A stretch of DNA of 64,000 bases, from assembly GCF_003334305.1 (NCBI RefSeq), contig NZ_QOWS01000016.1; one strand, written 5' to 3'. Position numbers and translations under genes: made by a program. A model generated the notes under the pieces. It worked only from the letters and a program-made list of their open reading frames with translations, had not been told where the DNA came from and did not search any database. This DNA is from Escherichia coli. Its GTDB lineage: Bacteria > Pseudomonadota > Gammaproteobacteria > Enterobacterales > Enterobacteriaceae. Every line of letters starts with the position of its first letter. The first letter of the stretch is position 1. This document shows positions 2,607 to 5,039 of the stretch, one piece after another.

Positions 2607-5039
2607 TTACAGCATATGTTCAGTACGGGCGATGATATCGTCCTGTGCGTCTGGAGAGAGCGCGGTGAAGAAGGCGGAATAGCCCGCGACACGCACTACC
2701 AGATCGCGGTACTGATCCGGATGTTTTTTCGCTTCCAGCAGCGTTTCGCGGGAAACGATGTTGTACTGAATATGCCAGCCTTTATGCACTTCAAAGAAGG
2801 TGCGCAGCAGGATCATCAGTTTCTGCTTGTCAGATTCGTTCTCCAGTGTTGCTGGATTCAGTTTCTGGTTGAGCAACACCCCGCCGAGAATCGCTGCCGT
2901 AGGCAGTTTACCCACCGAGCCAATGACCGCAGTAGGGCCAAGATGATCAGTACCGGAAGCCGGGCTTGCGCCTTCTGCCAGCGGGGTATGCGCTTTACGT
3001 CCGTCCGGCGTTGCCATCGTCTGCGCGCCAAACGGTACGTTAGCGGAGATAGACGACGTACCCGCGTAATAGTTGCCGCCAACCGGACCACGACCGTAGC
3101 GTGGGTTATGGTACTGTTTCAGTTCGTCGATATAGGTCTGATAAGCGCGAGCCAGCAGCGTATCGACGGTATCATCGTCGTTGCCGTACTTCGGCGCACC
3201 GTTAATCAGCCGCTGACGCAGTTGCTCATGAGTCAGGCCATCGAAGTCATCCGCCAGTGCGGCAGCCAGCTGTTGCTGACCAATCGCGCCCTGTTCAAAT
3301 ACCAGTTTCTTCACTGCCGCCAGGCTGTTGCCGAGGTTGGCAATGCCAACCTGCAGGCCAGAAACCCAGTCATATTTCGCGCCGCCTTGCTTGATACTTT
3401 TCGCTCGCTCAATACAGTCATCCACCAGCGCCGAGCAGAGAATATCGTGCACGTTCTCTTCCAGCATGGTGTCGACGACATATTCGATTTCGATTGATTT
3501 GCGGGTGTAGTAACGGATTTGCGTATCCCACGCGTCCATTACTTCATCGAAATTGTTAAAGTTACCTGCCGACAACGCTTTTTCTTGTGGCAGGAACACT
3601 TTGCCGCTGGTGGCATCACGCCCGCCTTCCAGCGCCGCCAGCATCACGCGGGCGAAGTTGATAAAGCTCATGCCGGTACAGCGATAGCCCCATTTGCCAC
3701 CGACGGCGGTTTCGATACAACCAATCGCTGCGTAGTCGTAAGCGTCCTGCGGTTCAATACCGAGTTTAATAAATTCCGGGATCACGATTTCGTCGTTGTT
3801 GAACGCCGGCATCCCGAAGCCGCAGCGGATCAGCTGTACGCAGGCGTCGAGGAAATCGTTACTCATTCCTGCATGGTAACGCACGCTGAGGTTAGGCTGA
3901 GTGGAACGCAGGCGACCGCAGGATTCAAGGATCGCGTAAGAGAGGGGATTCACCGCGTCCATTGGTTGACCATCAACCAGATTTTGCCCGCCAATGGTGA
4001 CGTTCTGATACAGCGGACTTCCCGCAGAGGCTTTCGAGTGCGAGCCGGAGCGGATCTTGTTCACTTCCAGCAGTTTCAGCCAGCAGCTATGCAGCAATTC
4101 GATGGCGTGTTCGCGATCCAGTGTCTGGTTGAGTTCAACGTCGCGGCGATAGTATGGGTAGAGATACTGGTCCATACGACCAAACGATACCGAGTGACCG
4201 TTAGATTCGATCTGCAAAATCAACTGGATGAAGTAACACAGTTGCAGCGCCTGCCAGAAAGTCTGCGGCGGCTGGTGGGCGATAAGATCGCAGTTTTCTG
4301 CTATCGTCAGCAGTTCATCGCGACGGCTTTCGCGGGTTTCGGTCGCGGCCATTTCACGCGCCAGGGCAGCGAAACGTTCAATGTGTTCACTGACTGCCAC
4401 CAGCACGATATCAATCGCTTTCAGGAATTGCTCACCGTGTAAATCTTCCAGCACCGTCAGGTTGATGCGCGAGCGACGTTCCGCTACTTTCTCGCGCAGA
4501 CCATCAAGACCTTTTTCCAGCAGCAGCGGGAAATTCACCGCCAGGTGCGCATCGCCGGAGGTCATATTGCCTTCCGCTTTAATGATGCCGGTCGCCAGCA
4601 GACCTTTTTGCTCATCGGTAAACATGCCGTAGCAGCGATCCTGTACGGTCTGACCGCGCCACCACGGGCACAATTCATGCAGAACGCGTTTGTTCTCTTC
4701 GCTCACCGCAAAACCAGCACCGGGACGATCCGCCAGATCATCAATCTCTTTTTCGATCCAGGAGACAGTATATTCCGGGAAGATCGGCGCGGCGCGAACT
4801 TCGCTTGCCTGGTTGCCGATGATCAACTCATCGTGCTTGATCCAGATAGTGCGATTCGCCAGGTGATGTGCCAGCGCCAGCGCGCGACGTACCGGGATCG
4901 GCTTATCGAGATGTTGTTGATACATCTCGGTATAGTGCTGCGCGCGCTCGGTACAGACTGGCGGTTTCACAATATGCACCAGCGCATTTTTGTGCGCTTT
5001 AATGCGGTCGCTGAGCGTGTCCAGTTTCAGTGTGGTCAT
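2607..5039 (-). CDS. ybiW: Glycyl radical enzyme, pyruvate formate-lyase-like (YbiW/PflF)
   Basis: 810 aa; C-terminal RVAGYSAFF glycyl-radical motif; mid-protein GCIET with a single Cys followed by Glu at +2. Confidence 0.9.
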   Translation of the reverse strand: MTTLKLDTLSDRIKAHKNALVHIVKPPVCTERAQHYTEMYQQHLDKPIPVRRALALAHHLANRTIWIKHDELIIGNQASEVRAAPIFPEYTVSWIEKEIDDLADRPGAGFAVSEENKRVLHELCPWWRGQTVQDRCYGMFTDEQKGLLATGIIKAEGNMTSGDAHLAVNFPLLLEKGLDGLREKVAERRSRINLTVLEDLHGEQFLKAIDIVLVAVSEHIERFAALAREMAATETRESRRDELLTIAENCDLIAHQPPQTFWQALQLCYFIQLILQIESNGHSVSFGRMDQYLYPYYRRDVELNQTLDREHAIELLHSCWLKLLEVNKIRSGSHSKASAGSPLYQNVTIGGQNLVDGQPMDAVNPLSYAILESCGRLRSTQPNLSVRYHAGMSNDFLDACVQLIRCGFGMPAFNNDEIVIPEFIKLGIEPQDAYDYAAIGCIETAVGGKWGYRCTGMSFINFARVMLAALEGGRDATSGKVFLPQEKALSAGNFNNFDEVMDAWDTQIRYYTRKSIEIEYVVDTMLEENVHDILCSALVDDCIERAKSIKQGGAKYDWVSGLQVGIANLGNSLAAVKKLVFEQGAIGQQQLAAALADDFDGLTHEQLRQRLINGAPKYGNDDDTVDTLLARAYQTYIDELKQYHNPRYGRGPVGGNYYAGTSSISANVPFGAQTMATPDGRKAHTPLAEGASPASGTDHLGPTAVIGSVGKLPTAAILGGVLLNQKLNPATLENESDKQKLMILLRTFFEVHKGWHIQYNIVSRETLLEAKKHPDQYRDLVVRVAGYSAFFTALSPDAQDDIIARTEHML

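Follow-up and report, generated by a model that had tools for sequence, protein, structure and literature searches.

Glycyl radical enzyme (GRE) eliminases are told apart from the formate-lyases, in textbook terms, by a Cys-x-Glu (CXE) motif versus an adjacent Cys-Cys pair. CXE on the Cys loop is a class feature of the GRE eliminases, which include CutC, HypD, and the homologue IslA, where the Cys-Gly distance is 5.2 Å (PMC8473560). The leaving groups of CutC, HypD, and IslA (N, OH, and S) differ from that of YbiW.

The closest described system is YbiW of Escherichia coli K-12, for which two structures are deposited (8ID7 and 8YJN). In 8YJN, the phosphate-binding pocket is reported to be occupied by 1,5-anhydroglucitol-6-phosphate (1,5-AG6P). 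The structure of YbiW was published in 2024, as was its substrate. The passage of a review that cites this work describes a glycyl radical-dependent C-O cleavage by a radical route, which converts 1,5-AG6P to 1-deoxyfructose-6-phosphate, and says of the product just that it "is then further metabolized" (PMC12441222, citing Ma et al., JACS 2024). The same passage reports that E. coli PflD (8YJO) cleaves the C2 epimer, 1,5-anhydromannitol-6-phosphate, to the same product. The YbiW pathway has some medical interest, as 1,5-anhydroglucitol is a human glycemic marker and, in G6PC3/GSD-Ib neutropenia, the toxic metabolite is its 6-phosphate (PMC12441222).

PflD belongs to the same subfamily as YbiW but is a paralogue rather than an orthologue, and its substrate differs in stereochemistry. 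Its gene presumably lies elsewhere in the chromosome, beside the frw PTS genes. The nearest solved enzyme other than YbiW and the orthologue 6XS4 is the B12-independent glycerol dehydratase (GDH) of Clostridium butyricum (1R8W; E = 3.4e-164), which follows the same radical 1,2-elimination logic. GDH acts on a small triol and carries out a true dehydration to an aldehyde, whereas the substrate of YbiW, as described in the review passage, is a cyclic sugar-phosphate ether whose leaving oxygen is retained in the product. PflB is more distant (24.9% identity). It has the superfamily fold, the RV(S/A)GY motif, and the thiyl Cys column in common with YbiW, but it carries a Cys-Cys pair, has Ser in place of the Glu, and cleaves a C-C bond via an acyl-enzyme intermediate.

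Identity of the gene

We analyzed 64,000 bases of DNA, here called the window. Our analysis shows which gene this is, what motifs it has and how they align, its subfamily, and the neighboring activase and aldolase genes; substrate, product, and the general role of CXE are taken from the literature. The window matched E. coli strain A7 with 0 mismatches (100% identity), and the A7 record annotates the gene as ybiW, "glycyl radical protein."

2607..5039, minus strand: ybiW coding sequence, 810 amino acids; glycyl radical enzyme, PFL2/glycerol-dehydratase subfamily (ORF call, annotation, TIGR01774, and PDB alignment)

We found that the protein aligns without gaps over residues 1 to 810 with the PDB sequences 8id7 and 8yjn ("Probable dehydratase YbiW"), with 799 of 810 residues identical (98.6%) and a score of 1,849 bits. 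None of the 11 substitutions falls in the Cys loop or the Gly loop. The cluster E114A/E115A/K117A in the PDB sequences looks engineered, and the other eight differences look like strain variation. Together with this alignment, the shared gene context (ybiU-ybiV-ybiW-ybiY / fsa-moeBA) identifies the gene as the orthologue of K-12 ybiW, with the same loops and the same neighbors (ybiV, ybiY, and fsa). The 4.8-kb stretch that carries it (positions 2000 to 6800 of the window) is at least 80% covered in 5,426 of 5,426 complete E. coli genomes. We conclude, with a probability of roughly 93%, that this gene is E. coli ybiW and that it encodes a 1,2-eliminase-class glycyl radical enzyme acting by the mechanism proposed below.

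The Cys loop and the glycyl radical motif

The initial annotation had described a GCIET segment with a single Cys at about residue 441 and Glu at +2, and an intact RVAGYSAFF near the C terminus. Both are present, as found by regular expression on the translation and by alignment.

3708..3722, minus strand: Cys loop, G440-C441-I442-E443-T444
2667..2693, minus strand: glycyl radical motif R783-V-A-G786-Y-S-A-F-F, residues 783 to 791 of 810

The codon for Gly786 occupies positions 2682 to 2684, and the range 2682..3722 given in the initial annotation spans exactly the coding segment from Gly440 through Gly786, both codons included. A search of the translation counted 13 cysteines in YbiW and no adjacent Cys-Cys pair anywhere in its 810 residues. 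The protein contains three copies of C-x-E, at residues 29, 441, and 542. The pattern by itself is therefore not diagnostic, and it is the alignment that identifies the copy at 441 as the Cys loop. We rejected the other two copies as the active site. C-I-E at 542 to 544 is off the Cys loop and aligns with NCIGKG of GDH, which has no Glu there, and C-T-E at 29 to 31 is N-terminal and outside the residues that match PflB (256 to 806).

YbiW C441, E443, and G786 align with C433, E435, and G763 of GDH (IGC433-V-E435 and RVAG763YSAQF). The segment GCIET matches HypD GCVET and CutC GCVEP column for column; these two proteins are 31 to 33% identical to YbiW and also have RVAGYS aligned with its Gly loop. 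We confirmed the identity of the CutC sequence. GC(V/I)E is common to YbiW, HypD, CutC, and the C. butyricum homologue, and PflB has CCVS at these columns. Gly440 thus stands at the column of the first Cys of PflB, Cys441 at that of the second, and Glu443 at that of the Ser. At the Gly loop, PflB RVSGYAVRF aligns with YbiW RVAGYSAFF, and R783-V-A-G786-Y carries the superfamily pattern RVxG[FWY] in alignment with GDH, PflB, HypD, and CutC. These alignments bear out what the initial annotation had said of the other enzymes, namely, that pyruvate formate-lyase has Cys-Cys where YbiW has GCIET and that GDH and CutC have Cys-x-Glu. They also place GCIET at the catalytic Cys loop, as it had proposed, with no Cys-Cys pair elsewhere in the protein to take that place.

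Both loops are covered by 142 of the best 150 family representatives, and we surveyed these. The catalytic Cys was present in 138 and C-x-E in 109, and Cys-Cys was found in none (0 of 142); the Gly of the Gly loop was present in 135. In one representative, P0022, the columns of the two YbiW motifs read GCVE and RVAGYS. It was the best candidate for a PflD orthologue, but it scores 872 bits against a cutoff of 1,109 and is hence PflD-like only.

Cys441 is therefore the predicted thiyl radical residue and Glu443 the predicted general base of the eliminase type. Homology, and the existence of solved YbiW structures, suggests that both are placed over the Gly loop. One further residue stands out in an ungapped stretch of the GDH alignment (YbiW GDAH165LAV on GDH GVGH164VSV).

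4545..4547, minus strand: codon of the conserved His165, aligned with His164 of GDH

Of the 150 representatives, 108 have His at this column, where CutC carries Asp and PflB carries Arg. His165 is a candidate general acid that may donate a proton to the leaving oxygen.

Subfamily models

Among the NCBIfam models, YbiW passes TIGR01774, the PFL2/glycerol-dehydratase subfamily (1,405.7 bits versus a cutoff of 678.2; residues 8 to 810), and fails TIGR01255 (PFL1) by a wide margin (159.2 versus 994.2). It also falls below the cutoffs of HypD (NF043068; 532 versus 1,100), HpfG and HpsG (NF048009 and NF048011; 519 versus 1,000 and 509 versus 1,000), CutC (TIGR04394; 464 versus 1,050), and the PflD type (NF007437; 584 versus 1,109). 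NCBIfam thus admits YbiW solely as a member of the PFL2/glycerol-dehydratase subfamily. YbiW fails every NCBIfam equivalog, and NCBIfam has no YbiW-specific model. Sequence alone yields the class of the enzyme and not its substrate.

Activase and aldolase genes beside ybiW

Two neighboring genes bear on the function of YbiW.

5045..5944, minus strand: ybiY, radical-SAM activase for YbiW (ORF, annotation, and TIGR02494)
6075..6737, plus strand: fsa (fsaA), fructose-6-phosphate aldolase (annotation; NF009296, 451 bits versus a cutoff of 306)

The ybiY open reading frame is intact and lies upstream of ybiW, with 5 bases between its 3' end and the start codon of ybiW. YbiY scores 369 bits on TIGR02494 (PFLE_PFLC; cutoff, 174) and has C25-x3-C29-x2-C32 (CxxxCxxC) in GCSLGCRWC, the mark of the dedicated activase found in this superfamily. 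The fsa gene is divergent from ybiY. We found the same grouping of GRE, activase, and fructose-6-phosphate aldolase beside the 50%-identical C. butyricum homologue; no aldolase adjoins the Enterococcus gilvus homologue. FsaA is the predicted downstream enzyme for the YbiW product, and Ma et al. reportedly had the aldolase act in the YbiW pathway in 2024. There is no anhydroglucitol PTS or transporter gene beside ybiW in the window. Neither the E. coli neighborhood of ybiW nor that of the C. butyricum homologue contains genes for an aldehyde dehydrogenase or reductase or for a microcompartment.

Alternative functions of YbiW

The names attached to YbiW and its relatives suggest other functions. 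One of these functions is that of a third pyruvate (2-ketoacid) formate-lyase ("PflF," "formate C-acetyltransferase"), which would cleave pyruvate through a Cys-Cys thiyl relay. PDB 6xs4, which is about 95% identical to YbiW, is named "Formate C-acetyltransferase," NCBIfam NF007437 gives the paralogue family that name, and YbiW is homologous to PflB overall (E = 1e-42). A 2020 paper counts YbiW among the "four formate acetyltransferases" of E. coli, so that at least one experimental study has used it as a pyruvate formate-lyase (PMC9055928). A relay of this kind has no counterpart in YbiW, which has no Cys-Cys pair and has Gly440 at the column of the first Cys of PflB; nor does any of the 142 surveyed relatives (from the best 150) have the pair at the site. 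The low TIGR01255 score, the distance from PflB, and the different function given in the review passage (PMC12441222) also speak against it. We consider the formate-lyase reading effectively refuted. A coincidental motif match or a decaying gene, with ybiW a nonfunctional relic in the source strain, is no more credible. The threefold occurrence of C-x-E makes the pattern by itself weak, and scans for promoters and terminators gave results at chance level, but the 810-codon reading frame is intact with all catalytic residues kept, the protein is nearly identical to the crystallized K-12 protein, the upstream activase frame is intact, and the stretch is covered in all of the complete genomes. 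This reading is already refuted.

The name "Probable dehydratase YbiW" points to a true dehydratase of small diols, similar to the glycerol and 1,2-propanediol enzymes, that would release water and form an aldehyde. The nearest structures of other enzymes are indeed GDH (1r8w) and a diol dehydratase (5i2a), and they share C-x-E and the His aligned with His164 of GDH. The GDH score is 551 bits, however, versus 1,849 bits for YbiW itself, which is similarity at the level of a paralogue. The conserved neighbor is a fructose-6-phosphate aldolase rather than any of the aldehyde-handling or microcompartment genes, and according to the review of Ma et al., in the passage that covers YbiW, the substrate is a sugar phosphate and the product is its isomer (PMC12441222). 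We therefore regard a small-diol dehydratase as very improbable and favor the 1,2-eliminase acting on a sugar phosphate.

The eliminase-type active site of YbiW is correct but already established, and we claim no discovery. The practical value of the analysis is in annotation. The RefSeq name is still the generic "glycyl radical protein," and related entries and models are still labeled "formate C-acetyltransferase." A check of two residues in the Cys loop suffices to reject the formate-lyase name.

Proposed mechanism

In the mechanism that we propose, YbiY would put a radical on Gly786, which would hand it to Cys441 in each turnover. The Cys441 thiyl would remove the C2 hydrogen of 1,5-AG6P, and Glu443 would hydrogen-bond to or deprotonate the C2 hydroxyl to give a ketyl-type radical; both the site of hydrogen abstraction and the role of Glu443 are predicted from class chemistry. 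The ketyl-type radical would expel the adjacent C1-O5 ring oxygen, opening the ring, and the C1 radical would regain a hydrogen from Cys441 to give 1-deoxyfructose-6-phosphate. FsaA could then split this product into hydroxyacetone and glyceraldehyde-3-phosphate.

On the substrate and product given in the review passage, the net reaction is a ring-opening isomerization and not a dehydration. Because it is the ring oxygen that leaves and the substrate and product are isomers, no water is lost, and "dehydratase" is inexact. Of the "eliminase/dehydratase" type assigned in the initial annotation, the eliminase part is supported by CXE, TIGR01774, and the literature, and the dehydratase part is imprecise.

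Regulation and downstream genes

Promoter and terminator scans of positions 1 to 6900 gave results at the level of shuffled sequence. A search for FNR sites in the region between ybiY and fsa found a 9/10 match at 5998 to 6011. FNR-like matches are no more common in the window than expected by chance (4 found versus 2.57 expected), and the literature that we searched contained no link of ybiW or ybiY to FNR.

Downstream of ybiW and in the same direction lie ybiV, whose product is a sugar phosphatase of the Cof type, and ybiU (DUF1479). Both could belong to the same anhydro-sugar pathway, YbiV could serve as a relief valve by dephosphorylating 1,5-AG6P or 1-deoxyfructose-6-phosphate, and YbiW could accept further anhydro- or deoxy-sugar phosphates; we think this unlikely, the one pointer to it being gene adjacency in E. 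coli. Neither ybiV nor ybiU is found beside the Clostridium and Enterococcus homologues. YbiU, which falls in no NCBIfam family, has a solved structure.

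Locus and conservation of ybiW

We found that the window matches E. coli strain A7 (NZ_CP028767.1:1641593-1705592) at 64,000 of 64,000 positions. The genes around ybiW are ordered as follows.

Genes in and next to the ybiW locus
229-1494, minus strand: ybiU, DUF1479 protein
1646-2461, minus strand: ybiV
2607-5039, minus strand: ybiW, 810-codon open reading frame (ORF) containing the range of the initial annotation (2682-3722)
5045-5944, minus strand: ybiY, activase gene
6075-6737, plus strand: fsa, aldolase gene, divergent from ybiY
next after fsa: moeB and moeA

Coverage of the 4.8-kb ybiV-fsa segment reaches 80% or more in each of the 5426 complete E. 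coli genomes. Thus, ybiW is a core gene. We also found that the YbiY activase bears a CxxxCxxC motif. This radical-SAM motif spans residues 25 to 32 in the 299-amino-acid form, which has the RefSeq start at 5944; the longest ybiY ORF begins with an ATG at 5971 and encodes 308 amino acids (difference, 5945-5971, minus strand).

An FNR-like site in the divergent ybiY/fsa intergenic region, TTGATgtgcGTCAA (5998-6011, plus strand), matches the consensus TTGAT-N4-ATCAA at 9 of 10 positions; the ybiY start is 54 bases away and the fsa start 64 bases away. One-mismatch FNR sites are not above chance in the window (4 found versus 2.57 expected), and our literature search found no paper tying ybiY or ybiW to FNR. 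The ybiU gene is codirectional with ybiW and ybiV, and structures of its product have been solved (2dbi, 2csg, and 4rgk). No NCBIfam family matched YbiU, and the depositors' names of the closest PDB chains carry no function; the weakest PDB match is 6akz, named GlcNAc Inducible Gene 2.

YbiW has a Cys-x-Glu Cys loop

In the translation, GCIET occupies residues 440 to 444 (window 3708-3722) and RVAGYSAFF occupies residues 783 to 791 (2667-2693). As initially annotated, Cys441 is followed by Glu at +2 and the glycyl radical motif near the C terminus is intact; the annotated range is bounded exactly by the Gly440 and Gly786 codons. YbiW has 13 cysteines, none of them adjacent to another. Bare C-x-E is found at three places (residues 29, 441, and 542), so the pattern alone is weak proof and alignment must carry the argument.

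We compared YbiW with PDB chains using phmmer. YbiW itself (8id7 and 8yjn) ranked first, followed by a 95%-identical orthologue (6xs4), the B12-independent glycerol dehydratase (GDH) (1r8w; E = 3.4e-164), and the diol dehydratase 5i2a. PflB was far lower (E = 1e-42). Residue by residue, GIIGC433VE435PQK of GDH aligns with AAIGC441IE443TAV of YbiW, RVAG763YSAQF aligns with RVAG786YSAFF, and His164 aligns with His165. The second C-I-E (residues 542 to 544; 3408-3416, minus strand), in DDCIERAKS, aligns with DNCIGKGKS of GDH, off the Cys loop; the Cys is common to both proteins and the Glu is present in YbiW only. Searches by pattern alone would be misled by it.

We then aligned YbiW by MAFFT with proteins taken from annotated entries: PflB encoded by the same E. 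coli genome, HypD from Cetobacterium, CutC from Proteus mirabilis (its ORF confirmed against the PDB, with 2083 bits to 9f3w), and a 50%-identical homologue from a Clostridium butyricum megaplasmid.

Cys-loop segments in the MAFFT alignment
YbiW: IGCIET
C. butyricum homologue: IGCVET
HypD: SGCVET
CutC: MGCVEP
PflB: ACCVSP

By these columns, Gly440 replaces the first Cys of PflB and Glu443 replaces its Ser, and Cys441 is the universally conserved thiyl Cys. GCIET thus falls on the catalytic Cys loop of GDH, HypD, and CutC, and the absence of any Cys-Cys pair holds for the whole protein. The contrast drawn in the initial annotation, between a Cys-x-Glu type shared with GDH and CutC and the adjacent Cys-Cys of PflB, is borne out.

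We scanned the full set of 1.84 billion cluster representatives with HMMER, which returned 2167 relatives (E ≤ 1e-30). We aligned the best 150, of which 142 cover both loops. Among these 142, the Cys is present in 138, the Gly in 135, C-x-E in 109, and G-C-x-E in 103; Cys-Cys was found at the Cys loop in none. The only NCBIfam acceptance was TIGR01774, the "formate C-acetyltransferase/glycerol dehydratase family" (1405.7 bits; cutoff, 678.2). YbiW fell below the PFL1 equivalog cutoff (159 versus 994) and below that of every characterised eliminase equivalog (HypD, HpfG/HpsG, CutC, and PflD type). Sequence therefore sets the class, eliminase, and not the substrate.

Reported substrate and proposed mechanism

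In glycyl radical eliminases, the Glu of the Cys-x-Glu motif forms a hydrogen bond with the hydroxyl of the substrate, and the Cys is described as about 5 Å from the radical Gly (PMC8473560). A review (PMC12441222), citing Ma et al. (2024), reports that YbiW converts 1,5-anhydroglucitol-6-phosphate, and PflD 1,5-anhydromannitol-6-phosphate, to 1-deoxyfructose-6-phosphate; the reaction is glycyl radical dependent and lets E. coli grow on 1,5-anhydroglucitol.

By analogy with the chemistry of the class, the Cys441 thiyl radical would take the C2 hydrogen of 1,5-anhydroglucitol-6-phosphate, and Glu443 would deprotonate or polarise the C2 hydroxyl. The ketyl radical would then expel the neighbouring C1-O5 ring oxygen, to which His165 may donate a proton, and the C1 radical would regain hydrogen from Cys441 to give 1-deoxyfructose-6-phosphate. 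The same 1,2-elimination logic applies to GDH and CutC, but in YbiW the leaving group remains tethered, so the net reaction is a ring-opening isomerisation. Of the initial label "eliminase/dehydratase," the first half stands and the second is slightly off, as is the UniProt/PDB name "Probable dehydratase."

Ma et al. in 2024 reportedly found that FsaA and FsaB split 1-deoxyfructose-6-phosphate into hydroxyacetone and glyceraldehyde-3-phosphate. Aldolase cleavage of the YbiW product agrees with the gene map, in which fsa adjoins ybiY-ybiW and is read divergently. On the C. butyricum megaplasmid (NZ_CP053375.1; L006:4113-9098), a DeoR regulator, a glycyl radical enzyme activase, and a fructose-6-phosphate aldolase flank the YbiW homologue, which carries GCVET and RVAGYS. 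The enzyme-aldolase pairing is therefore conserved across phyla. The Enterococcus gilvus homologue has the activase and DeoR, with no adjacent aldolase. Downstream of the C. butyricum group lie an mngA-type PTS gene and mngB.

The formate-lyase reading of YbiW persists solely in database nomenclature and one applied paper, which treated the protein as a formate acetyltransferase (PMC9055928); this reading is contradicted by the missing Cys-Cys pair and by the model scores. That YbiW is instead a small-diol dehydratase conflicts with the different substrate that has been reported and with the aldolase context, and universal conservation and intact ORFs contradict a relic or a coincidental motif. 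We concluded that the Cys-x-Glu eliminase observation is confirmed and that its interpretation is supported.

Crystallised protein and naming

YbiW of the window and the crystallised sequence disagree at 11 residues, all of them outside the catalytic loops. Both 8id7 and 8yjn have SAANAR, versus SEENKR in the window and in the Klebsiella-like 6xs4 (residues 114 to 117; 4689-4700, minus strand). The clustered E114A/E115A/K117A is probably a surface mutation engineered for crystallisation; the remaining 8 differences look like strain polymorphisms.

Naming trails the literature. NCBIfam release 20 holds no YbiW equivalog. RefSeq names ybiW generically ("glycyl radical protein"), and the PflD-type model NF007437 is titled "formate C-acetyltransferase," as are several PDB entries of the subfamily. 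YbiW is a well-conserved E. coli enzyme with characterised structure and biochemistry and a textbook class motif, and nothing here is new; the sole practical value is a reminder that "formate C-acetyltransferase" labels are misnomers in its family.

Other features of the window

The matches at the Rfam gathering threshold are two ordinary E. coli features.

30409-30487, minus strand: RybB sRNA, 105 bits, rcdA/ybjL gap
43162-43242, plus strand: naRNA4/CssrE, 78.5 bits, artJ/artM gap

G+C falls to 0.43 to 0.47 at 14001-18000 (flanks, about 0.52 to 0.55), a dip that coincides with the end of gsiD, pdeI, and the start of dgcI; pdeI and dgcI are c-di-GMP phosphodiesterase and cyclase genes, respectively.
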